Source of the DNA: Patescibacteria group bacterium
GTDB lineage: Bacteria; Patescibacteriota; Microgenomatia; Levybacterales; UBA12049
Length of the DNA stretch: 64,000 nucleotides
Assembly (NCBI GenBank): GCA_023484045.1
Contig: JAMDAA010000035.1
Coordinates: 10,966-74,965 of the forward strand
Direction: 5' to 3'
Shown: one piece after another, positions 628 through 59,564 of the stretch
Numbering within the stretch: the stretch's first letter is position 1
How the letters are laid out: each line of letters starts with the position of its first letter
The notes under the pieces: generated by a model
What the model saw: the letters and a program-made list of their open reading frames with translations, nothing else
Told to the model about the DNA's origin: nothing
The model's database searches: none
Made by a program: the position numbers and the translations under genes

Positions 628-1281
628 TCATACGCTTTTTTGTGCCGTAATCATCGGCGTTTTTATGTCGTTACTTTCAACCAATGTGTTTTCTTCGGCT
701 TCTTCGTTATAGACAGAATAGTAAAGTTTTACCAATTCTTCTTTTTCGAGTGTTTTTGCTTTGAGTCCGAGTCTTGCGAGTTGCGTATTCAGAGAGCTCG
801 ATTTTGTATCCAGGGCTTGTTTTGCCTGCTCCTTCGAATTTTTGTCTTTAATAACGCTCGCCGCGCCTTTCTCAAGCGGCGAATAAGGAATAACAATATA
901 GAATTTTTTATCCAGGACTTCGTTTACTTTTATCAATTCTTGTACGAAATCGTGATACAAACTTATTTGCAGCGAAAGTTTTTCGTTGGTCGATTTTTTA
1001 ACTTCTTCTTCGAGTAATTTTAAATAAGACGAGATATCGACTTTTTTGTTTCGGATCAACACTTGTATCGGAAAAGAAAGTGAATTCAGAAGCGACGCGT
1101 AAGAATATATTTTTGTATTTTGTTCTTCTCTTGACAAAAGCGAAAAGTTAGTCGCCTGAATTTCGGTGATCAAACACGCGTTTCCGCCTGTCAAAAACAC
1201 GATATTCCCCTCGATATCGACAATTTCAGTAAATTTTTGGGTAGACCCTGCTTTTATTTTGTTTGGTTTATCGATCGCCAT
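628..1281 (-). CDS. Hypothetical protein in the T4SS-like operon, between the PrgI-like and VirB4-like genes
   Basis: 217-aa ORF separated by 3 nt from both the upstream PrgI-like gene and the downstream VirB4-like start. Charged and coiled-coil rich. No family recognised. Confidence 0.4.
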   Translation of the reverse strand: MAIDKPNKIKAGSTQKFTEIVDIEGNIVFLTGGNACLITEIQATNFSLLSREEQNTKIYSYASLLNSLSFPIQVLIRNKKVDISSYLKLLEEEVKKSTNEKLSLQISLYHDFVQELIKVNEVLDKKFYIVIPYSPLEKGAASVIKDKNSKEQAKQALDTKSSSLNTQLARLGLKAKTLEKEELVKLYYSVYNEEAEENTLVESNDIKTPMITAQKSV

Positions 1282-3573: not shown

Positions 3574-3981
3574 TTAGGAGCCGATCAGGGGAGGTATCGT
3601 AAGATTTGTAATATTAATTCCGAACAATTGCGCTACAAACGATATAATAAAGTAAGCCAATATCGCAATAATTAATCCTACAATCGCCGCCACAATCTGA
3701 TTTCTCGCTCCCTCTACTTTCGATTTATCTCCGCCGGAAGTAATCCATCTTATTCCGCCGATGATTAAGAAGAATACGGCGATAATAATCGCGATAATAA
3801 TAACAGCGATTATGACTCTACCGACCATCGGGCCGAAATCTGTCGGCGTAATCAAACATATTTGTCTGAGAATGTCATTTTTCTCTTTTTCTTGGCAAAT
3901 AGCAAGGTCTACGGCAAAAGCAGGATTTGCCAGTAATAGATACGAGATAAGTCCTGTTATCGGGGCGATAATTTTCCTCAT
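3574..3981 (-). CDS. TrbC/VirB2-like pilin-type protein (paralog 2). Start trimmed to MRKIIAPITG with a signal peptide
   Basis: Signal peptide ending ANPAFA, then the core FGPMVGRVIIAVIIIAIIIAVFFLIIGGIRWITSGGDKSKVEGARNQIVAAIVGLIIAILAYFIISFVA. This core is identical to paralog 3 over 68 aa. Confidence 0.5.
   Translation of the reverse strand: MRKIIAPITGLISYLLLANPAFAVDLAICQEKEKNDILRQICLITPTDFGPMVGRVIIAVIIIAIIIAVFFLIIGGIRWITSGGDKSKVEGARNQIVAAIVGLIIAILAYFIISFVAQLFGINITNLTIPPLIGS
3635..3838. repeat. 204-bp perfect direct repeat, copy A (inside pilin paralog 2); identical to 4213-4416
   Basis: Direct base-by-base comparison of the two regions. Identity begins at acaaacgatataataaagtaagcc and ends at ggccgaaa. 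Flanks diverge immediately on both sides. Confidence 0.9.
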
Positions 3982-4043: not shown

Positions 4044-4571
4044 TTACCGACATTCAAAAATTGGCGGGAGTAGTCCAGGATTAATTTGGGTACAGGTTCC
4101 CGAAGTGCAGGATCCAGATGTATTCCCGCCGCAAACAGCAGACGAAGAGCTACTTCCGCCTATTAAATTTGGAATCGTGAGATTCGTAATCGTTATTCCG
4201 AATAATCCGGCCACAAACGATATAATAAAGTAAGCCAATATCGCAATAATTAATCCTACAATCGCCGCCACAATCTGATTTCTCGCTCCCTCTACTTTCG
4301 ATTTATCTCCGCCGGAAGTAATCCATCTTATTCCGCCGATGATTAAGAAGAATACGGCGATAATAATCGCGATAATAATAACAGCGATTATGACTCTACC
4401 GACCATCGGGCCGAAACTTTGAGGATTAAAACCGCAAAGTATCTTATTAAATCCTGTGTTGCCTCCTGCTCCGGCCTGACTGCAAACGTCAACCGTTACG
4501 TCGGCAAAAGCGGGTTTTATAAAAAAGAGATAAAAAAACAGAGTACTAAAAAATGCAAAAATTTTCCTCAT
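4044..4571 (-). CDS. TrbC/VirB2-like pilin-type protein (paralog 3) with a Cys/Gly/Ser-rich C-terminal tail
   Basis: Same start and signal peptide as paralog 2 (MRKIFAFF...KPAFA) and the identical 68-aa core. It has a divergent N-terminal region and a C-terminal GGSSSSSAVCGGNTSGSCTSGTCTQ tail. Confidence 0.5.
   Translation of the reverse strand: MRKIFAFFSTLFFYLFFIKPAFADVTVDVCSQAGAGGNTGFNKILCGFNPQSFGPMVGRVIIAVIIIAIIIAVFFLIIGGIRWITSGGDKSKVEGARNQIVAAIVGLIIAILAYFIISFVAGLFGITITNLTIPNLIGGSSSSSAVCGGNTSGSCTSGTCTQINPGLLPPIFECR
4213..4416. repeat. 204-bp perfect direct repeat, copy B (inside pilin paralog 3)
   Basis: See copy A. The offset between copies is 578 bp. Confidence 0.9.
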
Positions 4572-13877: not shown

Positions 13878-14393
13878 CTATTTTTTTGCTTTCAACCTAC
13901 GGTTGATCGCCCGCAGGGCGACTTGCCAGACTTGTTTATCTGATTTATAAGTCAGTCTTTTTTCGACTTCATGAATATCGAGCCATTCTACGTTTTCCAT
14001 TTCGTGATCGTGATTTTTCGTATCGCCGGACACGTACTGCATTAAAAAATAATACACGGTTTTTTTTATTTTCTCTTGCCCTGAGCCTGTCGAAGGGTTC
14101 CCCTCAAATTGATACCAATACGTAACCGCCGGTAACTCTTTTTCTATTTTCCCCAAAATTCCTGTTTCTTCCTCGACTTCCCGAACCGCGGCTTCTTCCT
14201 TTGTCTCTTTTTTCTCTTGCCCTGAGCCTGTCGAAGGGCCGATTAGTCCTTTCGGAAAAACCCAGCCGTGATGTTGTGAATGTTGCGCTACAAGAATCAA
14301 AATTTTGTTATTTTCTCTTTTATGGACTATTCCTCCGGCTGAAAATTCAAATTTCATAATTTTTTGCGTCCTCGAGAGGAATCGAACCTCCAA
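13878..14393 (-). CDS. NUDIX hydrolase carrying two in-frame copies of a 23-bp repeat element
   Basis: Nudix box GX5EX7REVEEETGI is present. Two insertions, at 14075-14097 and 14215-14237, encode (G/N)PSTGSGQEK. Confidence 0.8.
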   Translation of the reverse strand: MEVRFLSRTQKIMKFEFSAGGIVHKRENNKILILVAQHSQHHGWVFPKGLIGPSTGSGQEKKETKEEAAVREVEEETGILGKIEKELPAVTYWYQFEGNPSTGSGQEKIKKTVYYFLMQYVSGDTKNHDHEMENVEWLDIHEVEKRLTYKSDKQVWQVALRAINRRLKAKK

Positions 14394-14439: not shown

Positions 14440-14478
14440 ACTTCGTTGTACGCTCAGTGTAAACAAATATTATCAATG

Positions 14479-28606: not shown

Positions 28607-29356
28607 ATGATATATAGTAGCAAACTTATGGCAATAGAAGCTAGAGATTTACTTCGAAGACAACTTGAGCAGTTGCCGGAAGATCATCCGGAAAGGGCTT
28701 TCATAAACACCCAGATAGGTGTTTTTGATGCTTATATTGCGGCCAGAAAAGGAGTAGCGTCAGAGCCTTCTGAGTCAAGCGAAAGAGTTGATCTAAATGC
28801 AGAGTGGAAAAGACGAGCGGAAAGGTACATAGAACTTGGTTTTCATAAAGAGCTTGGTCTTTCAAAAAAGGATTATTTGGCATCTTTGCCAAAATTTGAA
28901 CTACAGCCGGAAAGCTTTCGCGGCCGTTTTGATATCCCAATTCTTGTTGAAACGAGAATTAAATCACAACGCCAAGCAGAACTTGCAGGACTCAGTTACT
29001 ACCTGAGTGGTTCAGCAGTTTCTGACTGGGAAGGTGACCCCATGGATTACAAAACTTCCGATGTTCCATATACTGCGTGGATGCAAGATGGAAGAAAAAA
29101 TCTTAAAAGGAGTGTTGACGATGTTCGTAAAGCATTAGAAATAGATGAGCGTGGAGCAACGGAATATGATGGCGTAGCCCTTTGGATTTCAAACCCAAGC
29201 GTGTTAAGAGATCATTATATTGACCTTCCGGGGACGCAGGTTGGGTCTGGGGGTGCGCCCGATTTGGCTCGTGGGCTCGGTGGGCCGCGCTTGGACTACG
29301 GTTGGGCTGGCAATGGCGATCCTAGGTTTGGTTCTGCTTCCTGCGGGAGAGTTTAA
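28607..29356 (+). CDS. Hypothetical protein. The 3' half is compositionally GC-rich relative to the window
   Basis: 249-aa ORF. The C-terminal Gly-rich stretch is encoded by unusually GC-rich DNA (ggtgcgcccgatttggctcgtgggctcggtgggccgcgc...). Confidence 0.4.
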   Translation: MIYSSKLMAIEARDLLRRQLEQLPEDHPERAFINTQIGVFDAYIAARKGVASEPSESSERVDLNAEWKRRAERYIELGFHKELGLSKKDYLASLPKFELQPESFRGRFDIPILVETRIKSQRQAELAGLSYYLSGSAVSDWEGDPMDYKTSDVPYTAWMQDGRKNLKRSVDDVRKALEIDERGATEYDGVALWISNPSVLRDHYIDLPGTQVGSGGAPDLARGLGGPRLDYGWAGNGDPRFGSASCGRV

Positions 29357-30739: not shown

Positions 30740-32933
30740 AGATGCAGTTTACAGAATTTTCGGTTCCTTTTATAAAATATTCAATTCTCCCAAGACACGG
30801 TTTTTGAATAACATCAAAAGGCATTTTATATTTTTCATCGGGCTTATTTTTTAGGACCTCGGTCATGATTTTGTTCCAAATCGGTGCGGCACCCGTTATT
30901 CCCGATGCTAAACTTTGACTCATTGGGCTATTGTCGTTATTTCCAACCCAGACAGCAACAACATAAGAAGGTGTATAGCCGATTGTCCAATTATCTCTTT
31001 TGTTATCGGATGTTCCGGTTTTAACCGACACAGTCTTGCCAGAAATATTAAGAGGGGAATTTGTGCCGAATTCTAAGGCTCGAGCTTGATTATCTGAAAG
31101 TATGCTCGAAATAATAAAAGTAATGCCTTCATCTAAAACAGTTTTTCCATGGATTTCTTTTTTTTCTTCTAAGATGTTACCTTTATAATCGGTTATTTTT
31201 AAAATCGGGTTTAAATCGACTCTTCTGCCCTGATTCGCGATGGTTCCGTAAACGGTCGCCATATCGAGCATCGTGACATCCGCACCGCCGAGCGTTATCG
31301 ATAAACCGTATTTTTTCGAATCATCCCACGATTTTATTCCCATTTTCTTTCCCAAGTTTACGATCGCTTGGACCCCGACTTGATTTACAATTTTTACAGC
31401 AGGAATATTAAAAGAATTTGCAAATGCGATCCGAAGCGGAATATTCCCATGGAATTTACCGTCATAATTAACAGGTGAATAAACAGTTGCAGAACCGGTT
31501 GCAACAAACGTGATCGGAGAATCATTTAGAATTGTTGCAGGAGTTAGTCCGCGGGAAAGTGCTGCGGAGTACGTGACGACTTTTATCGAAGATCCGGGTT
31601 GGCGAAGAGAAAGTGTCACGTTTACATTTCCATCATTTTTTGTGTCAAAATAGTCTTTACTTCCGACCATCGCTAAAATATCTCCATTTTTCGGATCAGT
31701 TACGACACTCGCGCCGTTTGTAAGATTTAAGTAAGTATTATTTTGCACCTCATCTGCGACAATTTTTTCGGCATCTTCCTGAAGTTTTAAATCGATGCTT
31801 GTTATAATATTTAATCCGCCTTTTTCGACCATTCCGAGGCCATATTTTTTTACCAAAAAATCTTTCACATACATCACAAAATGCGGAGCGAATATTGGCG
31901 TTTGGGGAGTTTGAAAAGCTAGCTCTTCATTTTTTGCATTGTCGTGATCTTCCTTTGAAATATAATCCAAGGAAAGCATTTTGTCTAAAACTTCGATTTG
32001 TCTCCTTTTCCAAAGATTAGGTGTTGTGCCAAACGGAGAATAGATCGTCGGTGCTTTTGGGATTCCGGCCAAAAATGCAGATTCAGCAAGGTCTAAATCT
32101 TTGACGTTTTTTCCGAAATATATTTCGGAAGCCGCCTCTGCGCCCCAGGCAGTTCCCCCGTAAGGAACCTGATTAAAGTACATCTCGAGAATTTGGTTTT
32201 TGGTATAAATTCTTTCGGACCAGAAGGCAAGGATTATTTCTTTTATTTTTCTTTCGATCGTAGTTTCGGGACTTAAAAGCGCAGACTTAATAAGTTGTTG
32301 GGTGATCGTTGATCCGCCCTGCAACCCGTCTCCCGACGCATTTTTAATCGCTGATCTTATGATCGCGTTTACGTCAAATCCCGGGTGATCGTAAAAATCT
32401 TTGTCTTCGATCGCGATCGTCGCCTGCTGTAATTTTATCGGAATATCAGAAAGCGGGACCATGGTCCTGTTTTGATTTGCGTAAATTTGATATAAGAGCG
32501 TATGGTTTCGATCATAAATTTTTGTTGTTTGCGAGATGTCCCTTAAAGACAGCATTCTCGGATTCGGAAGGTTATCGATAAAAATAAATATAAGAATCGG
32601 GATAAAGATAAAAACACAGGAAAAAATAATGCCCCAAATAAAATATTTAAATTTTGTTAAAAACGGGAGAGGGAATATAACTATCGGCTTTGTTTTCTTA
32701 CTTTTTTTTATCCTATTTTTAATTTTTTCGTAGAATTGTTTTTTGGTTTTATTATTAGATCGAGAAAACCTCAACCTTCTTAAATCAAAGATTTCAAAAG
32801 TAATCTTAAAAAGATTAACTATAGGTTTAAATAAATTTTTGACAACAGATTTAATTGATTTAAACAATAAGATTACAAAATCACCAATTTTAATCAGAAT
32901 CTGCGCGATAAAAAAAGCAATATTCCCGATCAT
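30699..32933 (-). CDS. Class A penicillin-binding protein (transglycosylase + transpeptidase), paralog 1
   Basis: GT51 motifs IEDKDFYDHPGFD and GGSTITQQLIK. Transpeptidase region LSLRQPGSSIK (SxxK). N-terminal TM. Confidence 0.8.
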   Translation of the reverse strand: MIGNIAFFIAQILIKIGDFVILLFKSIKSVVKNLFKPIVNLFKITFEIFDLRRLRFSRSNNKTKKQFYEKIKNRIKKSKKTKPIVIFPLPFLTKFKYFIWGIIFSCVFIFIPILIFIFIDNLPNPRMLSLRDISQTTKIYDRNHTLLYQIYANQNRTMVPLSDIPIKLQQATIAIEDKDFYDHPGFDVNAIIRSAIKNASGDGLQGGSTITQQLIKSALLSPETTIERKIKEIILAFWSERIYTKNQILEMYFNQVPYGGTAWGAEAASEIYFGKNVKDLDLAESAFLAGIPKAPTIYSPFGTTPNLWKRRQIEVLDKMLSLDYISKEDHDNAKNEELAFQTPQTPIFAPHFVMYVKDFLVKKYGLGMVEKGGLNIITSIDLKLQEDAEKIVADEVQNNTYLNLTNGASVVTDPKNGDILAMVGSKDYFDTKNDGNVNVTLSLRQPGSSIKVVTYSAALSRGLTPATILNDSPITFVATGSATVYSPVNYDGKFHGNIPLRIAFANSFNIPAVKIVNQVGVQAIVNLGKKMGIKSWDDSKKYGLSITLGGADVTMLDMATVYGTIANQGRRVDLNPILKITDYKGNILEEKKEIHGKTVLDEGITFIISSILSDNQARALEFGTNSPLNISGKTVSVKTGTSDNKRDNWTIGYTPSYVVAVWVGNNDNSPMSQSLASGITGAAPIWNKIMTEVLKNKPDEKYKMPFDVIQKPCLGRIEYFIKGTENSVNCIFTPSPSPSVSPTL
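31585..31679. repeat. 95-bp block identical to 34080-34174 (between the two PBP paralogs)
   Basis: Direct comparison: atcgaagatccgggttggcgaagagaaagtgtcacgtttacatttccatcattttttgtgtcaaaatagtctttacttccgaccatcgctaaaat is identical in both genes. Two further shared blocks of about 32 bp lie near 32296/34790 and 32395/34880. Confidence 0.9.
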
Positions 32934-33019: not shown

Positions 33020-35173
33020 TTACGGTTTTGGCGGTTCTGTTGGATGAGGGCAAGTCAAACAATAAAAGTCTCCGTTTGGGTCTTTGACGACAACTTCGTC
33101 CCGCATTTCGGCATTATCTGTTTGACCTTGTTTTACCAAATCATTCGTAGATTTATCGATCCAAACTTTTTGCTGTCCAGGATCGACTGTTTTAGGTTCA
33201 GTACCCTTTATAAAATATTCAAATCTTGTTGGGCATCGATTCGGTGTTCCGTCGGATGGCGGAATGAACCCCGACGTTGAACAAACGGCTTTTTGAATAA
33301 CGTCTTCTGGCTTCTGGGGAGATTCGATCGTTTTATCCTTAAGTAAATTTGCCATTATTTTATGCCAGATCGGCGCAGCACCTGTTATACCCGAAACCAG
33401 GCCTGTCATTTGACTATTATTGTTGTTCCCGACCCAAACAGCAGCCAATAAAGATTTTGTATATCCTATAGTCCAATTATCGCGGTAATCATTTGTTGTT
33501 CCGGTTTTAACCGACACTGTTTGATTGTCGATTTTTAGTTCAGAATTTGATCCAAATGCCATTTCTCTTGCGCCATTATCAGATAAAATATTCGAGATGA
33601 TAAAAGCGACAGAAGACGGAATGACTTTTTTTCCAAAAATCGGGCTCGAAGGTGGTTTATATTCTTCGATAATTTTTCCCTTCGCGTCGGTCAATTTTAA
33701 AATCGGATGGAGATCAATTCTGTATCCATTATTAGCGAAAACACCATAGGCGGTTGCCATCTGTAACATTGTTACTTCACCACCGCCGAGAGTGAGCGAT
33801 AGGCCATAACGATTTGGGTCTTTGAAAGTTGTGATTCCCATTGCAGAGGCAGTTGCGATCATCGGTTCGACTCCGTTTAGTTTTAACATTTTGACCGCTG
33901 GGATGTTTATCGAATTTCCCAAAGCATATCTCATTTGAATAACGCCGTGCCATTTTCCGTCATAATTTACGGGACAATATTCTTCATGGCCGGGATTTGG
34001 GAAACACGTCTCTTGATCGATAAATGGCGTGGCGGCGTTATATCCTTTAATAAGACCAACGGCGTAATTAATCGGTTTGATCGAAGATCCGGGTTGGCGA
34101 AGAGAAAGTGTCACGTTTACATTTCCATCATTTTTTGTGTCAAAATAGTCTTTACTTCCGACCATCGCTAAAATTTCTCCCGTACCAGGATCAGTTACGA
34201 GACCTGCGGCGTTTGAGACGTTATATCCTTTAAGTTTTGCAACCTCGGTAGCGATAACGTCTTGCACGAATTCTTGAGTCGGTAGATCAAGGGAAGTTAT
34301 TACCTTAAGTCCTCCTTGCTCGACTAAATGCTCGCCATATTTTTCTTCCAAAAGCCCCTTGACATATAGCACAAAATGCGGGGCTTTTATAGTGCTCGAG
34401 ACTTTTTGAAAATGGAGTTCTTCTTTTATGGCTTTCTCTGTCTGGCCTTTGTTTGTGTATTCTTGTTGTTCCATTTTTCGTAAAACCTCAACTTGCCTTT
34501 GTTTAGCGAGCTCCGGATGGGAGCCAAACGGGGAAAGCGTAGTCGGCGATTCGGGAAGTCCAGCGATTAATGCAGCTTCAGCGAGGGTTAGATCTTTTGC
34601 GTGTTTTCCAAAATATGTCTGAGCTGCTGCTTCAACTCCGTAGGCTGTTCCGCCATAGGGTGCCTGATTTAAGTACATCTCGAGAATCTGATTTTTAGAA
34701 TATAAAGATTCGGTTGCGAAAGAAAGGATAACTTCTTTGATTTTTCGTGTTATCGTTCTTTCTGGTGTAAGAAGACTATTTTTTACGAGTTGTTGGGTGA
34801 TCGTTGATCCGCCCTGCAATTCTTTATGGAATACGATCGAATACAGAGCGCGGGTGATTCCCCGAAGATCGATCGCGCCGTGTCGATAAAAATCTTTGTC
34901 TTCGATCGCGATCGTCGCATTTTGCAAATTAACCGGAATTTCTTTAAGTGGAATAAAAGTTTGGTTTTTTTGGGCGTAAATCGTATATAAAAGATTGCCG
35001 TTCCGATCGAATATTTGACTCGATTGGGGAATTGCTGAGCTACTGAGTTTTGTCGGGAGTGGCATGTCCCTTAAGATAAAAAAATAAAATAATCCGGATA
35101 AAATAGCGATTATCAGAAAGATTATCCAAAATTTGCGAACAAACTTGTAAAGCGATTTTGGGTTTTTTTTCAT
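33020..35173 (-). CDS. Class A penicillin-binding protein, paralog 2
   Basis: IEDKDFYRHGAIDLRGI and GGSTITQQLVKNSLL; LSLRQPGSSIK; N-terminal TM. Confidence 0.8.
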   Translation of the reverse strand: MKKNPKSLYKFVRKFWIIFLIIAILSGLFYFFILRDMPLPTKLSSSAIPQSSQIFDRNGNLLYTIYAQKNQTFIPLKEIPVNLQNATIAIEDKDFYRHGAIDLRGITRALYSIVFHKELQGGSTITQQLVKNSLLTPERTITRKIKEVILSFATESLYSKNQILEMYLNQAPYGGTAYGVEAAAQTYFGKHAKDLTLAEAALIAGLPESPTTLSPFGSHPELAKQRQVEVLRKMEQQEYTNKGQTEKAIKEELHFQKVSSTIKAPHFVLYVKGLLEEKYGEHLVEQGGLKVITSLDLPTQEFVQDVIATEVAKLKGYNVSNAAGLVTDPGTGEILAMVGSKDYFDTKNDGNVNVTLSLRQPGSSIKPINYAVGLIKGYNAATPFIDQETCFPNPGHEEYCPVNYDGKWHGVIQMRYALGNSINIPAVKMLKLNGVEPMIATASAMGITTFKDPNRYGLSLTLGGGEVTMLQMATAYGVFANNGYRIDLHPILKLTDAKGKIIEEYKPPSSPIFGKKVIPSSVAFIISNILSDNGAREMAFGSNSELKIDNQTVSVKTGTTNDYRDNWTIGYTKSLLAAVWVGNNNNSQMTGLVSGITGAAPIWHKIMANLLKDKTIESPQKPEDVIQKAVCSTSGFIPPSDGTPNRCPTRFEYFIKGTEPKTVDPGQQKVWIDKSTNDLVKQGQTDNAEMRDEVVVKDPNGDFYCLTCPHPTEPPKP
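34080..34174. repeat. 95-bp block identical to 31585-31679
   Basis: See 31585-31679. Confidence 0.9.
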
Positions 35174-54422: not shown

Positions 54423-54685
54423 AAAAGTGCTTGCACTGAACGGAGCGAAGCCTAGAAAAAGATATGTCCTTCGATAAACTCAGGACAATTCGCCGCTTCT
54501 ATTCTAAATGCTTGCAATGAGCAAGCCCGAATGAAATGAAGGGCGCGTCGAATTGTTGCGGGGCTGGGAGTTGCGCCCAGCCTGTGAGATTATGAGCCTC
54601 ACGTGCACTGTACACTACCCCGCGCGTGCGTACTATTATAACAATTGATTTCACCTTGGTCAACCTGATATACTTTGATCTGAAA

Positions 54686-54762
54686 GCCAGGGTAGCTCAG
54701 TCGGTAAGAGCACAGCATTCATAACGCTGAGGTCGTGGGTTCGATTCCCACCCCTGGTACCA
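54686..54762 (+). tRNA. tRNA-Met/Ile2-type (anticodon CAT), CCA encoded
   Basis: GCCAGGGTAGCTCAGTCGGTAAGAGCACAGCATTCATAACGCTGAGGTCGTGGGTTCGATTCCCACCCCTGGTACCA. Whether it is elongator Met, initiator or lysidine-Ile2 cannot be decided from the sequence. Confidence 0.8.
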
Positions 54763-54852: not shown

Positions 54853-55158
54853 ATGTCAAAACTTACGCATTGTGTTTACGTTTTGTTTAGTTTAAAAGAT
54901 AAAAATTTTTATATTGGATCTTCTTCAAATTTAAAGTCAAGATTAACGGACCATTTTAATGGAGAAGTTAAAAGCACTTTGTTCAGAAGACCATTTAAGC
55001 TTATTTTTTGTGAATATTTTTTATCTAAAAAAGATTCGTTAAGGAGAGAAAAATATTTTAAAACGACTTCAGGAAAAAAGGCATTAAAATTAATTATTAG
55101 AAAATCGCTTGATGAATTAATGCCTAAATTGGTTTCAAGAAATGCAAATTCTGTCTAA
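54853..55158 (+). CDS. GIY-YIG nuclease-domain protein (second intact paralog)
   Basis: ...CVYVLFSLKDKNFYIGSSSNLKSRLTDHFNGEVKSTLFRRPFKLIFCEYF... Confidence 0.7.
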   Translation: MSKLTHCVYVLFSLKDKNFYIGSSSNLKSRLTDHFNGEVKSTLFRRPFKLIFCEYFLSKKDSLRREKYFKTTSGKKALKLIIRKSLDELMPKLVSRNANSV

Positions 55159-55161
55159 ATT

Positions 55162-55950
55162 ATGAATAATCAGCCGATCGGTGTTTTTGATTCTGGAGTT
55201 GGGGGATTAAGTATCCTCTCCGAAGTTAAAAAAAAACTACCAAAAGAAAACTATATTTTTTTAGCCGACCAGGCCCATGTTCCTTACGGCGAAAAAACAG
55301 GAGAAGAGCTCAAAATTCTTGTTTCCAAAATTATCGATTTTTTTATCAGAAAAAAAGTTAAAATGGTCATTTTCGGTTGCAACACGGCGACTGTCTACGC
55401 GATCGATTTTTTAAGGAAAAGATATCCGATTCCGCTTGTCGGTGTGGTTCCTGTTATAAAAACGCTCGCGGAACATACAGTAAGTAATAAAGTAGGGGTT
55501 TTATCCACGCCAGCGACGAGTAAAAGTCCGTATCTTAAAAAATTGATAAATGAATTTGCAAATGGAATAAAAATTTATAATGTCGGCGGAAACGGACTCG
55601 AAAATTTGGTCGAGGAGGGGAAAATAGATGATCAAAAGACAAAAAAAGTTTTATCGGAAATTCTTACGCCGATGATTAAAAAAGGCGTTGATTGTATCGG
55701 TCTTGGCTGTACTCATTACCCGTTTTTAAAAGATGAGATTCAAAAAATCGTCGGATCTAAGATTTCTATTTTTGATTCGGGAAAGGCCGTCGCTAAAAGA
55801 GTAGACGAAGTATTATCAAAAAAGAATATAAAAGGAAATAAAAGAACAGGAGATTTATATTACACAACCGGAGATCCAAAAGAATTTAAAAGAGTAGCAG
55901 AAAAGCTATTGTCGCATAAGTTAGATAATGTTTCTACGGCGATAATTTAA
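55162..55950 (+). CDS. murI: Glutamate racemase
   Basis: PIGVFDSGVGGLS ... FGCNTATV ... GCTHYPFL motifs. Confidence 0.85.
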   Translation: MNNQPIGVFDSGVGGLSILSEVKKKLPKENYIFLADQAHVPYGEKTGEELKILVSKIIDFFIRKKVKMVIFGCNTATVYAIDFLRKRYPIPLVGVVPVIKTLAEHTVSNKVGVLSTPATSKSPYLKKLINEFANGIKIYNVGGNGLENLVEEGKIDDQKTKKVLSEILTPMIKKGVDCIGLGCTHYPFLKDEIQKIVGSKISIFDSGKAVAKRVDEVLSKKNIKGNKRTGDLYYTTGDPKEFKRVAEKLLSHKLDNVSTAII

Positions 55951-55953
55951 TAT

Positions 55954-57498
55954 ATGAATTTTAAAAATAAACCCTACGACGTTGAAACTTTGCAGGGCAA
56001 GAAAATAGCGGTTATTGGGCTTGGGGTAGAGGGGGAATCAAGCGTGAGATACTTGAAAAAGCAGGGCGCAGAAGTTACTGTTTTGGATAAAAAAGATAGT
56101 GAGGATTATCTTAAAGATCTTGACAAATACGATTTGATCGTTAGAAGCCCCGGGGTTCAATTGAATAAAATTCAGAATTCAGAATTCAGAATTCAGAATT
56201 CGATTATAACCTCTCAGACAAAACTTTTTTTTGATCTTTGCCCTTGTAAAATTATCGGAGTAACGGGGACAAAGGGAAAAGGAACAACTTCTTCATTAAT
56301 TTATGAAATGCTAAAAAAATCCTTCGACTCCGCTCAGGACAAGGCAGAGAAAAATGTGTATTTAGGCGGTAATATTGGACAGCCGCCGCTTGATTTTTTG
56401 AACAAATTAAATGATCAATCTTTAGTAGTCCTAGAGTTATCGAGTTTTCAGCTTCAAGACCTTACAAAGAGTCCGTACATAGCAGTTGTCTTAATGATAA
56501 CTTCGGAACATCTCGATTATCACAAAGATATTGATGAGTACGTCGACGCAAAAAGAAATATCTTAAAATTTCAGACAGCGTCAGATTTTGCAATTGTTAA
56601 TCGGGATTATCCGGCGAGCAATGAATCGGATATTCAAACAGAAGGAAAAGTGTATTTTGTAAGTAGGGAAAGAGAGGTCGAAGAAGGGTGTTTTGTAAAG
56701 GACGGAAAAATATTCATAAGACTTGGTACTGAAGTGACCCGCTCGCCGCTGAGGTCGGCTTGCCAGTTCGACGAGTTTTCGAACGCAAGCGTCCCTGCGG
56801 TCGCCTCAGGCGACCTCGGGATACGCTCCGATGTTCATCGGAGTCTAGCGAAAACATCGTCTCATGGTAAGCCTCCCCGCGGCGACCCGCGCTCTTCTCA
56901 ATATCCTAATATCTTTGAAGAACAAGTGATCGATACAAACGACATTCTTCTTCCCGGTACGCATAATTTGGAAAATGTATGCGCCGCGGTTATGGCGGCA
57001 ACATTGTCAGGAGTTTCAAAACAAAATATTATTCATGTTCTTAAAACTTTTAAAGGTTTGGAACATAGGCTCGAGTTGGTAGATGAGATCAACGGCGTTT
57101 CGTATTACGATGATTCGTTTTCTACGACTCCAGAGACCGCGATCGCCGCGATTCAGGCGTTTAAACAGCCGAAGATATTAATTCTTGGAGGATCGAGTAA
57201 AGGGAGCGATTTTACAGAACTCGGTCAAATTATTTCAAAAGACGAAAGTATAAAAGCGATTATCGGAATCGGAGAAGAATGGAGCCGCATGAAAGCGGAA
57301 TTTCCAATTTCCAATTTCCAATTTCCAATTATCGAAGGGGCGAAGAATATGTTGCAGATAGCTCAGGCGGCTTCGAAAATCGCAAAACCAGGGGACGTTG
57401 TACTTTTGACTCCGGCCTGCGCGAGTTTTGGGATGTTTAAAAACTACAAAGACCGCGGAGAACAATTTAAGAGAGAGGTCGAAAAACTTAAAAATTAA
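55954..57498 (+). CDS. murD: UDP-N-acetylmuramoyl-L-alanine--D-glutamate ligase with several in-frame repeat insertions
   Basis: GKKIAVIGLGVEGES and VTGTKGKGTT P-loop; DDSFSTTPE and LILGGSSKG C-terminal motifs. Insertions at 56169-56202 (AATTCAG x5), 56321-56346, about 56735-56900 (a 160-bp GC-rich nested palindrome) and 57301-57329 (TTTCCAA x4). Confidence 0.8.
   Translation: MNFKNKPYDVETLQGKKIAVIGLGVEGESSVRYLKKQGAEVTVLDKKDSEDYLKDLDKYDLIVRSPGVQLNKIQNSEFRIQNSIITSQTKLFFDLCPCKIIGVTGTKGKGTTSSLIYEMLKKSFDSAQDKAEKNVYLGGNIGQPPLDFLNKLNDQSLVVLELSSFQLQDLTKSPYIAVVLMITSEHLDYHKDIDEYVDAKRNILKFQTASDFAIVNRDYPASNESDIQTEGKVYFVSREREVEEGCFVKDGKIFIRLGTEVTRSPLRSACQFDEFSNASVPAVASGDLGIRSDVHRSLAKTSSHGKPPRGDPRSSQYPNIFEEQVIDTNDILLPGTHNLENVCAAVMAATLSGVSKQNIIHVLKTFKGLEHRLELVDEINGVSYYDDSFSTTPETAIAAIQAFKQPKILILGGSSKGSDFTELGQIISKDESIKAIIGIGEEWSRMKAEFPISNFQFPIIEGAKNMLQIAQAASKIAKPGDVVLLTPACASFGMFKNYKDRGEQFKREVEKLKN
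56169..56202. repeat. (AATTCAG)x4 plus one degenerate unit, a perfect heptamer microsatellite in-frame in murD
   Basis: aattcagaattcagaattcagaattcagaattcg encodes KIQNSEFRIQNS. Confidence 0.85.
56735..56900. repeat. About 160-bp GC-rich nested-palindrome insertion inside murD (in-frame, no stop codons)
   Basis: Palindromes seen: gcttgc...gttcgacgagttttcgaac...gcaagc, gtcgcctcaggcgac and ctccgatgttcatcggag. Encodes TRSPLRSACQFDEFSNASVPAVASGDLGIRSDVHRSLAKTSSHGKPPRGDPRSSQ, which is absent from MurD orthologs. Confidence 0.6.
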
Positions 57499-57499
57499 C

Positions 57500-58720
57500 A
57501 TGAGTAAGTTTGGTTTCGACATTTCTTTTAAAGATAAATCTTCACGCGCCCGGATCGGAAAAATCTCGACCCCGCACGGCGTTATCGAAACTCCGGCGTT
57601 TACCCCAGTCGGTACTCAGGCGTCGGTTAAATCATTAGACCCGAAAGATTTAAAAGAAACGAAAACCCAAATATTTTTTGGCAATACTTACCATTTACAT
57701 TTAAGGCCGGGGGAAGAGGTTGTTAAAAAATTTGGCGGATTGGCAAAATTTATGGGATGGGATGGACCGACGATTACGGACAGCGGGGGTTTTCAGGTTT
57801 TTTCGCTTGCTCAAAAAAAAGGAAGATCGCGCAATCAGGAAGAAGAAATTAATCTGGTTAAGATTACAGAAGACGGGGTTGTTTTTCGTTCGCATATAGA
57901 CGGAAGCTTACACGAATTCACCCCCGAAAAATCGATCGAGATACAAAAGAATTTGAGCGCGGATATTATTTTAGCGTTTGATCAATGTCCGCCGTATCCG
58001 GCAAGTTATGAAGACGCCAAAAAAGCGATGGACAGAACGCACGAATGGGCAGTTCGTTGCCTAAACTCAAAGCTCAAAGCTCAAAAGTCAAAACTACAAC
58101 TTAAAATTCAAAACTTTAATCAGGCGATTTATGGGATAGTTCAGGGTTCGGTTTATGAGGATTTAAGAAAAGAGTCGGCAAAATTCATTGGCGATCTTGC
58201 CCTGAGCGGAGTCGAAGGGTTTGACGGGATTGCCATCGGCGGAGTCGCGGTCGGAGAAAGTAAAGTTGAAATGCTGCGAGCTGTTGAATGGGTGGTTCCG
58301 CTTTTGCCAGAAGAAAAACCCCGGCATTTGTTGGGCGTTGGGGAAGTGGATGATATTTTTGAAATTATTGAGCGCGGAATCGATACTTTTGATTGTGTTA
58401 TTCCGACAAGACTCGGAAGAACCGGATTCTTGTTTGTCGGGCCAAAAGAGGGGAACATTAAAAACCGATTTAGAATCGACATTAATAAATCGGTTTTTGC
58501 CAAAGACCAAGAACCGGTGACCAAAAATTGCAATTGTTATGTCTGTCAAAATTTTACCCGCGGCTATCTCAATCATTTATTTATAGGTAGAGAGCTTCTC
58601 GCATATAGACTTGCGAGTTATCACAATATTTACTTTATTAACGATCTCGTCGAAAAAATAAGGAACGCAATTTTAAACGGAGAGTTTAAAAAGATGAAAA
58701 GAGAATGGCTGGAAGCGTAA
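57500..58720 (+). CDS. tgt: Queuine tRNA-ribosyltransferase
   Basis: FGFDISFKDKSSRARIGKISTPHGVIETPAFTPVGTQASVK and the zinc site CxCxxC...H (CNCYVCQNFTRGYLNHL). In-frame insertions at 58063-58117 and 58196-58219. Confidence 0.85.
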   Translation: MSKFGFDISFKDKSSRARIGKISTPHGVIETPAFTPVGTQASVKSLDPKDLKETKTQIFFGNTYHLHLRPGEEVVKKFGGLAKFMGWDGPTITDSGGFQVFSLAQKKGRSRNQEEEINLVKITEDGVVFRSHIDGSLHEFTPEKSIEIQKNLSADIILAFDQCPPYPASYEDAKKAMDRTHEWAVRCLNSKLKAQKSKLQLKIQNFNQAIYGIVQGSVYEDLRKESAKFIGDLALSGVEGFDGIAIGGVAVGESKVEMLRAVEWVVPLLPEEKPRHLLGVGEVDDIFEIIERGIDTFDCVIPTRLGRTGFLFVGPKEGNIKNRFRIDINKSVFAKDQEPVTKNCNCYVCQNFTRGYLNHLFIGRELLAYRLASYHNIYFINDLVEKIRNAILNGEFKKMKREWLEA

Positions 58721-58833
58721 ATTTGACTTGATTTAGCAGTCTTGCTATACTTTATTAGTCATGAAAAAGGGAATATTAAATAATTGGTACGATCAGGATT
58801 CAGCTTAACTGTTGGTCTGATTTCTCGTGCTTG

Positions 58834-58860
58834 AACCAGCCAACAGCGGCTGGTTTTTTT
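58834..58860 (+). terminator. Rho-independent terminator after tgt
   Basis: aaccagccaacagcggctggtt hairpin followed by a T7 run. Confidence 0.5.
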
Positions 58861-58871
58861 ATGGAAAAAAT

Positions 58872-59564
58872 ATGAAAAATAAAAAAGCAATCTGTATTTT
58901 AGGAGGAATGGGGCCGCAAGCCTCAGTTTATATGCATAAAATGCTGGTCGAATTATCGGCAAGATATTTTAATGCAAAAAATAACGAAGATTATCCCGAA
59001 ATAATCATATATTCAATTCCGATTCCTGATTTTATCTCTAACAAAGTCAATAAAAGAAAGGCGCTGATTATGCTTAAAAAACGTGTAGCAGAGATAAATA
59101 AACTTTCTGTTTCACAAATCGGAATAGCATGCAATACGGCTCATTTACTTTTAGGGGAGTTACAAAATATATCAAAAACTCCTTTTGTATCGATAATAGA
59201 TGAAGTAAATAAAACAGTTGGGCCAAAGATTAAAAAAGTTGGTCTTTTAGCTTCACCTACAACAATAAAGTCATATTTGTATCAAAACGTTCTTGAAAAA
59301 AAGAGGATAGAAATAATTACGCCGTCTTTAATTGAATTGGAAATACTTGAAAAAATAATAAGAAAAGTGATTAGAGGCAAAATAACTAAAAAAGATCAAA
59401 TAACCTTAAGATCGATTGCTAATTCATTAAAAGACAGAGGTGCAGAGGGAATTATCCTTGGCTGTACAGAATTACCGCTTATTTTTCCACCGAAATTTTC
59501 TTTGCCTGTCTTTAATTCGGTTGAGATACTGGCGATGGCTTTATTGCGTAAATATTACAAATAA
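58872..59564 (+). CDS. Aspartate/glutamate racemase family protein (aspartate racemase-like)
   Basis: ICILGGMGPQAS ... IGIACNTAHLL ... GAEGIILGCTELPLI motifs of the Asp/Glu racemase fold with two Cys/Thr catalytic sites. Confidence 0.7.
   Translation: MKNKKAICILGGMGPQASVYMHKMLVELSARYFNAKNNEDYPEIIIYSIPIPDFISNKVNKRKALIMLKKRVAEINKLSVSQIGIACNTAHLLLGELQNISKTPFVSIIDEVNKTVGPKIKKVGLLASPTTIKSYLYQNVLEKKRIEIITPSLIELEILEKIIRKVIRGKITKKDQITLRSIANSLKDRGAEGIILGCTELPLIFPPKFSLPVFNSVEILAMALLRKYYK

Follow-up and report, generated by a model that had tools for sequence, protein, structure and literature searches.

A 64,000-nucleotide stretch of a Patescibacteria group bacterium genome (contig JAMDAA010000035.1 of assembly GCA_023484045.1; hereafter, the window) carries a murD gene with a GC-rich palindromic insert in its reading frame. 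We conclude that this insert is probably a copy of a small, nonautonomous and selfish GC-rich palindromic element, similar in kind to the Rickettsia palindromic elements (RPEs) and to transposable elements of the miniature inverted-repeat type (MITEs), residing in the murD gene of a Levybacteria-like bacterium of the candidate phyla radiation (CPR). An initial annotation of the sequence had described a segment far richer in GC than its surroundings, in frame and free of stop codons, and we found the same: the GC content was 0.61 at positions 56746–56882 and 0.64 at 56738–56893 (59–64% across the 183-nt insert region), against 0.37 upstream and 0.42 downstream of the insert within murD and 0.381 in the window as a whole. 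The segment is the largest non-tRNA GC island of the window and contains no stop within the murD open reading frame (ORF).

The murD ORF encodes 514 amino acids, compared with about 434 in insert-free orthologs, and Pfam recognizes MurD-like_N, Mur_ligase_M, and Mur_ligase_C in its product. An NCBI "Patescibacteria group bacterium" protein (P0001) matches this product at 100% identity, and the best of its 120 close homologs are Levybacteria/Microgenomates proteins. In the ortholog alignment, the loop at the insert position measures 77 residues against a baseline of 16 (consensus xLRxxGxEExIIDTKD, flanked by "GCFVKDGKI" and "ILLPGKHN"), giving a net insertion of 61 residues; the proposed location between conserved MurD blocks thus held, while the initial estimate of about 55 added residues was too low. 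A genome scan with MurD found the empty 16-residue loop in most GTDB species representatives. When mapped on a solved MurD (PDB 3lk7) with phmmer, query residues 59–256 aligned to chain residues 73–262 and query residues 323–512 to chain residues 264–448, so that the insert replaces one residue of the solved structure. The AlphaFold2 (AF2) model had a mean predicted local distance difference test (pLDDT) score of 78, and residues 263–316 scored below 50 and lacked secondary structure; the position of this stretch between the strands at 252–258 and 320–327 indicates that the insert sits at a β-hairpin turn. On the evidence of these models, the insert is in a surface β-hairpin turn of MurD, between residues 262 and 264 of 3lk7, and is predicted to be disordered.

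The same element recurs in many other places. Inserts in the DNA of three MurD orthologs (loci L001, L002, and L004) aligned with that of the window, showing conserved ends and compensatory changes in the stems, and a profile of the insert peptide retrieved a 73-residue "ORF" that turned out to be an intergenic copy upstream of mreB (L089). A 24-nt pattern of the 5′ arm matched 28 metagenome stretches, 20 of which also contained the 3′ arm CTCATGCCAAAGCTCCCCGCGC at a distance of 123–143 nt; the other eight (L091, L099, L104, L105, L108, L112, L113, and L117), having no 3′ arm, were discarded as chance matches. Two further hosts, dnaX and another Mur ligase, emerged when 1.84e9 representative proteins were searched exhaustively with HMMER, which gave only five true hits among the 50%-identity representatives. 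Word-indexed searches with peptide profiles are nearly blind at such short query lengths and recovered one protein with the type-A profile and none with type B. In total, the host genes comprised murD, a folC-like Mur ligase (at two sites), another Mur ligase, dnaX, tgt, prs, dprA, a SufC-like ABC ATPase, a class-I Trp/Tyr aminoacyl-tRNA synthetase (aaRS), and a glycosyltransferase of type GT4. Pfam confirmed the identities of DprA, the ABC ATPase, the class-I W/Y aaRS, PRPP synthetase, GT4, tRNA-guanine transglycosylase (TGT), the FolC-like Mur ligases, and DnaX. Intergenic copies exist as well, and about three quarters of the recovered copies are intragenic.

The element core is 125–143 nt long, and its sole open frame encodes a peptide of about 46 residues; it contains no transposase ORF. 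A covariance model built from 22 copies (R1) matched the copy in the window over its full length (102 bits, E = 2.4e-20). The initial annotation had likened the segment to a larger member of a family of GC-rich elements, and a palindromic family repeated in other genes and in intergenic DNA does exist; it shares no sequence, however, with the 22-nt GC-rich family present in the window, which is probably the family that was meant. The region had no phage match by blastn, and the 5′ arm gave no hits in viral contigs. Full-text literature searches returned nothing relevant on MITE- or RPE-like elements in CPR/Patescibacteria, and as far as we found, the family has apparently not been described before in CPR bacteria.

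The copies are united by their ends. Imperfect inverted termini of about 21 nt (GCGCTGAGGTCGC...CTCATGCCAAAGCTCCCCGCGC) are conserved in the 22 copies, while the hairpin interiors vary. Subfamily A1, which includes the copy in the window, has the junction sequences AACGCAAGCG, TACG, and TCTAG with two variable hairpins; A2 has an AT-richer interior and A3 a third interior type. On the plus strand, the 186-nt region folds at −85.3 kcal/mol, compared with −59.7 ± 4.1 for 200 shuffled sequences (z = −6.3, none of the 200 as good). The three hairpins named initially are all present, with gcttgc..gcaagc at 56758–56790, gtcgcctcaggcgac at 56800–56814, and ctccgatgttcatcggag at 56826–56843; in the minimum-energy fold and in the family covariation, the first is out-competed by long-range pairing of 56746–56781 with 56849–56882. 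Imposing the window's fold on nine A1 copies left 93.9% of the cells paired, against 80.3% in shuffled data and 37–51% when the pairing partner was slid. The covariance analysis across related copies that had been proposed showed 21 of the 47 pairs to be changed on both sides, a count reached by none of 500 shuffles. At the position of helix 4, seven different hairpin sequences occur in the nine A1 copies, paired in all of them, while the inner hairpin of helix 3 is missing in three family copies. When all 22 copies are compared, eight of the 18 pairs in the outer helix show compensatory change.

Such a pattern could reflect a functional structured RNA within the coding sequence (a signal for mRNA stability or processing, a pause site in translation, or a regulatory element), its palindrome maintained by selection on RNA folding. 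The strength of the fold and the abundance of compensatory changes in all four helices would agree with this alternative, as would the conservation of the junction sequences within A1, the higher nucleotide conservation of the element than of the flanking coding DNA between the window and L001, and two invariant sense-strand G·U pairs. The minus strand, however, folds at z = −5.7, nearly as well as its complement, as palindromic DNA should, and the exceptions to pairing in the outer stem of the 22 copies include five G·U and four A·C combinations, so that neither strand appears favored. The interiors are wholly replaced among A1, A2, and A3 and only the termini persist, the host genes are functionally unrelated and some copies are intergenic, and the conserved open frame can be explained without an RNA function. 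Searches against Rfam 15 (structured RNAs, group I and II introns, and ribozymes) gave no match overlapping the copy in the window at E ≤ 10, other than a 15.8-bit chance hit to a snoRNA, and none in seven other copies at E ≤ 1; the sense strand contains no terminator-like site. The structured RNA raised as an alternative in the initial annotation thus found no specific support, and we regard it as unlikely by a wide measure.

The reading frame is conserved along with the termini. Frame +0, with the pattern ALRSLRQF(G/E)(D/N)SS...HAKAPR, is free of stops in 21 of the 22 copies, intergenic ones included, while the remaining five frames are each open in 0–4 of the 22. All intragenic copies use frame +0 in the same orientation and have spans congruent modulo three; two of the five intergenic copies contain a frameshift or stop. 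This pattern fits read-through translation in which only harmless insertions have survived and argues against splicing or bypassing. In the window, the insert would yield a predicted tryptic peptide with the stretch SACQFDEFSNASVPAVASGDLGIR.

An element that is removed or skipped, whether as a very small RNA resembling an intron, as a "hop" element bypassed in translation, or through protein splicing, has precedents of a kind. CPR bacteria are known for introns in their rRNA genes. In the AT-rich mitochondrial genome of Magnusiomyces capitatus, mobile GC-rich blocks ("byp" elements or GC clusters) sit in coding genes and are bypassed by the ribosome (PMC5009743). The byp elements break the frame and the ribosome skips them, however, whereas the family found in murD is always open when in genes and needs no bypass: every intragenic copy is stop-free, in one frame, and a multiple of three in length, and the intergenic copies are not so constrained. 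No group I or II intron or ribozyme model matched, and the family peptide runs from ALRS/PLRS to APR/PPR, its first residue being neither Cys, Ser, nor Thr and its end lacking the terminal His–Asn. An intein in particular was rejected: the insert measures 61 residues, against at least about 130 for inteins, starts with VTRSPLRS, and ends with ...YPNIF, and the family peptide is ALRS...APR. Removal or skipping in any of these forms seems highly improbable.

The distribution of the copies does not follow that of the host genes. The closest relatives of the window's MurD lack the insert (P0002 at 74% identity, P0012 and P0014 at 71%), while carriers of a type-A element are more distant, at 62–66%. 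Between the window and L001, the element is 78% and the flanks are 68% identical; between the window and L004, the corresponding figures are 55% and 71–73%. The murD alleles L102 and L109 share 92–94% identity in the flanks and 82.5% in the elements, and the element in the L102 allele is 99% identical to the copy in the GT4 gene of L100 from the same metagenome; likewise, the murD element of L109 is 93% identical to the tgt copy in L116. The discordance between element and host identity indicates that copies move, or exchange sequence, between loci.

These data bear on the possibility that the insert is an old, lineage-specific loop or domain of MurD, vertically inherited and neither mobile nor repeated. 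A homologous insert is indeed found at exactly the same loop in L001, L002/L006, L004, L102, and L109, and 27 of the 120 closest MurD homologs have loops of 23–77 residues there. Those loops, however, are of several sequence types, copies of the element are also present in intergenic DNA and in at least 10 gene families besides murD, near-identical copies reside in different genes, and the peptide is predicted to be disordered. Sharing among orthologs had been named as the sign of an old domain; some orthologs do share the site, yet the closest relatives are without the insert, and element and host similarities disagree. We consider such an origin, which the copies outside murD largely refute, very unlikely.

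The insert could instead be an artefact of assembly or binning, created where a metagenome-assembled genome (MAG) was joined chimerically at a repeat. The window comes from a single MAG contig (one contig for P0001), and assemblers may jump at such repeats: the 363-residue metagenome protein P0123 joins domain III of DnaX, the element peptide, and the pyrimidine-binding half of a transketolase in one ORF, and reflects either misassembly across two copies of the element or a real recombination between them. MurD is collinear and in frame on both sides of the insert, however, and independent Logan, ENA, JGI, and NCBI assemblies contain homologous inserts at the same murD site, which leaves an artefact barely credible.

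Different families have used the same sites in different genomes. Another long hairpin element, type B, occupies the MurD loop in L085–L088, with copies also in tgt and elsewhere; types C and D have the same GCGCTGAGGTCGC start, but their reading frame is a different one; and L008 has a "VIPAKAGIQ" palindrome at the MurD loop. Outside murD, the tgt site "FQVFSLGR|" is occupied by A2 in L116 and by B in L085, the GT4 site "YPPV..|..SYxLxGGRLA" by A2 (L092, L100) or D (L005, L013), and the dnaX linker by A1 (L095) or A2 (L115). We also observed a composite murD insert in L002 at 3745–3948 (identical with L006 at 3582–3785), consisting of an A1 element followed by a family-D-type 3′ end, GAAAATTTTGAATCCTCCCCGCGC, which suggests successive insertions or recombination at one site.

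The junctions are unusual. The 2–5 nt just outside the conserved ends are mutually complementary and specific to each copy (TTT/AAA, GCT/AGC, GGTC/GACC, and in the window TCG/CGA); complementarity of at least 4 nt was found in 13 of 24 copies, against 0.4% of mismatched flank pairs. A target-site duplication of TA or GC was rejected, as the terminal bases covary as inverted partners (T..A, C..G). In the window, the sequence GACCCGC of the 5′ extension is repeated directly at 56884–56890. The complementary flanks may reflect insertion into the center of existing small palindromes or older elements, or outward growth of the palindrome by template switching. Together with the reuse of sites by different families, they could point to an unusual mobility mechanism.

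Several observations weigh against the insert being a mobile, translated repeat. R1 found exactly one copy in the window, the next hit scoring 9.5 bits, and neither repeat finding nor motif searches located a second copy in the 64 kb, so that the window shows only a single copy; elsewhere, one metagenome contained nine copies on eight contigs, and two copies lie on a single 5.7-kb contig (L115). No direct-repeat target-site duplication flanks the copies, and 1.5 Mb of loci contained no genuine-looking transposase-sized segment between paired termini that would represent an autonomous partner, so that mobility is deduced from distribution and not from a mechanism. We infer translation through the element only from the statistics of frames and stops. 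Two sense-strand G·U positions are invariant within A1, and the compensatory changes, combined with element identity exceeding flank identity between the window and L001, would also fit a selected RNA structure. Finally, all sequences derive from metagenome assemblies, and P0123 looks chimeric at an element.

With these reservations, we propose that the palindromic element would be transcribed and translated as part of MurD, forming a floppy Ser/Ala/Arg-rich loop of about 61 residues that the enzyme tolerates. Selection would leave only insertions that have an open frame, are divisible by three in length, and lie at permissive loops. The conserved termini would be needed for copying, either through a trans-acting enzyme or through recombination between copies, and the palindromic symmetry may be kept at the level of DNA, where arms or copies would correct one another through template switching or gene conversion, and not by selection on an RNA function. 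Copies could also swap sequence mutually or re-insert where a palindrome already sits.

A more speculative extension, which we hold to be possible though on balance doubtful, is that the families form one superfamily of coding-adapted palindromes turning over in place, as opposed to cut-and-paste MITEs. Types A1, A2, A3, C, and D share the 5′ end GCGCTGAGGTCG, and D and the composite remnant in L002 also share the 3′ end CTCCCCGCGC. New copies might insert into the center of an existing palindrome or hairpin or, alternatively, the resident interior might be replaced through gene conversion guided by the termini ("cassette exchange"). Turnover of this kind would explain why different families occupy the same loop of MurD, TGT, DnaX, and GT4 in different genomes, why the flanks are copy-specific and inversely complementary instead of direct repeats, and why orthologous copies differ while, within one population, copies from different genes reach 99% identity. 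If true, it would constitute a mechanism of mobility targeted to structure, of a kind not described for bacterial MITEs, and a natural source of loop diversity in the essential enzymes of reduced genomes.

Among known systems, the closest by description are the RPEs (RPE-1 to RPE-10; Ogata et al. 2000). As summarized in later accounts, these are palindromic repeats of 100–150 bp found in intergenic and coding DNA of a small-genome bacterium; they have a conserved peptide in one open frame, lie in frame in unrelated housekeeping genes at positions predicted to be compatible with the fold, differ in presence among orthologs, and have no known transposase (PMC10969869, PMC1779305). The family described here agrees in being a palindrome of that size that keeps a single open frame and lies in frame within genes of unrelated function. 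It also resembles RPEs in occurring both between and inside genes, in its predicted compatibility with the protein fold, in its uneven presence among orthologs, and in having no known transposase. It differs in residing in Patescibacteria/Levybacteria and not Alphaproteobacteria, and in being GC-rich in an AT-rich genome; the likeness is one of function as described, and homology is unlikely given the hosts. Termini shared across interior types, reuse of sites, and copy-specific complementary flanks were not found described for RPEs in those accounts.

In-frame fusions are also known for bacterial MITEs, among them ERIC, BOX, Correia, QMITE1/2 of Coxiella, and the Anabaena MITEs (PMC10969869, PMC5896051). 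Our element resembles these in being small (below about 500 bp) and present at many unrelated loci, without a transposase ORF, having terminal inverted repeats, and lying in frame within ORFs as some MITEs do. Typical MITEs, however, have a direct-repeat target-site duplication and a recognizable parent insertion sequence, neither of which was found, and most are mainly intergenic, whereas about three quarters of our copies are intragenic and in frame. Sequences of the repetitive extragenic palindromic type (REPs) and bacterial interspersed mosaic elements (BIMEs), which are associated with RAYT transposases, are extragenic, 20–40 bp long, and tagged by GTAG or CGTC (PMC3733652). They share with the present family imperfect GC-rich palindromes, compensatory change, and the lack of target-site duplication, and the family has derivatives of 36–42 nt. 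Its full copies, however, are 125–143 nt long (137 in the window), mostly intragenic, and start with GCGCTGAGG or (G/C)CGCTGAGG, not GTAG or CGTC; membership was rejected on the grounds of length, intragenic location, and start sequence. The miniature derivatives, at 4060–4095 (−) of L092 (36 nt) and 1123–1164 (+) of L103 (42 nt), retain both termini without the interior and are REP-like. No RAYT gene was seen among the four ORFs nearest to murD in the window, to which the scan was confined.

Compared with their orthologs, proteins of CPR/Patescibacteria often have extra length, and much of the sequence is "unalignable." If our reading is correct, part of this excess would come from repeats that are translated in frame inside essential genes (murD, dnaX, tgt, prs, aaRS), with a bearing on annotation, protein-family models, structure prediction, and the phylogenies inferred from these genes. 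The mechanism of RPEs has been a puzzle since 2000. The family would provide an independent RPE-like case in a phylum whose genomes are tiny and leave little room between genes, and its conserved ends, the reuse of sites, the complementary flanks, and paralogous copies that are nearly identical make the spread of palindromes in coding DNA testable.

Positions of the insert, the element core, and its parts in the window
Feature	Position	Strand	Basis
Host gene murD, UDP-N-acetylmuramoyl-L-alanine--D-glutamate ligase	55954..57498	+	ORF and Pfam
Net insertion, 183 nt, 61 codons (VTRSPLRSAC...SSQYPNIF)	56734..56916	+	Ortholog alignment, loop-length census, phmmer vs. PDB 3lk7, AF2 pLDDT
Copy-specific GC-rich 5′ extension GACCCGCTCG, lengthens the outer stem	56736..56745	+	Fold, sequence
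Element core, 137 nt, subfamily A1	56746..56882	+	Covariance model R1, alignment with 21 other copies
5′ terminal arm CCGCTGAGGTCGGCTTGCCAG (consensus of the family, GCGCTGAGGTCGCTTCGTCAG), base-paired to the 3′ arm	56746..56766	+	Helix 1: 16 pairs, 5 changed on both sides
Helix 2, 5′ strand GACGAGTTTTCG, pairs with 56849–56861	56770..56781	+	12 pairs, 6 compensatory, 95% of cells paired
Helix 3, CCCTGCG / CTCGGGA around the hairpin GTCGCCTCAGGCGAC (56800–56814)	56793..56821	+	11 pairs, 4 compensatory
Helix 4, hairpin CTCCGATGTTCATCGGAG	56826..56843	+	8 pairs, 6 compensatory, 100% of cells paired
Helix 2, 3′ strand CGAAAACATCGTC	56849..56861	+	Minimum-energy fold, A1 covariation
3′ terminal arm CTCATGGTAAGCCTCCCCGCGG, family consensus CTCATGCCAAAGCTCCCCGCGC	56861..56882	+	Family alignment, covariation
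Copy-specific 3′ extension CGACCCGCGC, complementary to the 5′ extension, then AT-rich tail TCTTCTCAATATCCTAATATCTTT	56883..56916	+	Fold, sequence

In the window, murD is preceded by an Asp/Glu racemase gene (55162–55950) and followed by tgt (57428–58720) and a second racemase gene (58827–59564). Two genes upstream lies a stand-alone GIY-YIG nuclease gene of 101 residues (54853–55158, +), and GIY-YIG genes were also called near murD in L002, L003, and L085. The murD gene itself contains three further small in-frame inserts derived from repeats: a run of the heptad AATTCAG at 56169–56207 (peptide EFRIQNS), the 22-nt GC-rich motif CCTTCGACTCCGCTCAGGACAAG at 56317–56343 (peptide SFDSAQDK), and a run of the heptad TTTCCAA at 57298–57337 (peptide FPISNFQFP). 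MurD orthologs have variable inserts at the same three places.

Of the 22-nt GC-rich family (CCTTCGACAAGCTCAGGACAAG and its complement), the window contains at least 6–10 copies, where none would be expected by chance. Copies lie at 14075, 14216, 27056, 27373, 45660, and 54468 and also at 14464, 38251, 46434, and 58196, the last lying in frame in tgt (58196–58222) with the peptide LALSGVEGF. The most GC-rich stretch of the window, at 29210–29349 with a peak of 0.74 in a 50-nt window, was rejected as a second element: its fold is unremarkable (z = 0.17), and it encodes the G-rich C-terminal tail of a 249-residue ORF (28607–29356).

ARAGORN identified no tRNA in the element. A tRNA origin of the 5′ arm was considered and rejected: the tRNA-Met at 54686–54762 (+) shares with it CGCTGAGGTCG and GTTCGA, but by our estimate about six to seven such 12-mer near-matches are expected by chance in the DNA searched. 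The match may be coincidental or hint at a tRNA-derived end. The variable-loop/T-arm region of this tRNA reads AACGCTGAGGTCGTGGGTTCGATTCC, and the same tRNA lies upstream of murD in L007, L010, L017, and L047. ARAGORN also called a second, short tRNA-Met of 70 nt at 54555–54624 (−), in a GC island just upstream of the plus-strand tRNA-Met. Elsewhere in the window, we observed a direct repeat of 246 nt with 96% identity (3593–3838 and 4171–4416) and a diverged tandem duplication (30920–32521 and 33406–35016) with a spacing of about 2.5 kb and segments that are 72–91% identical.

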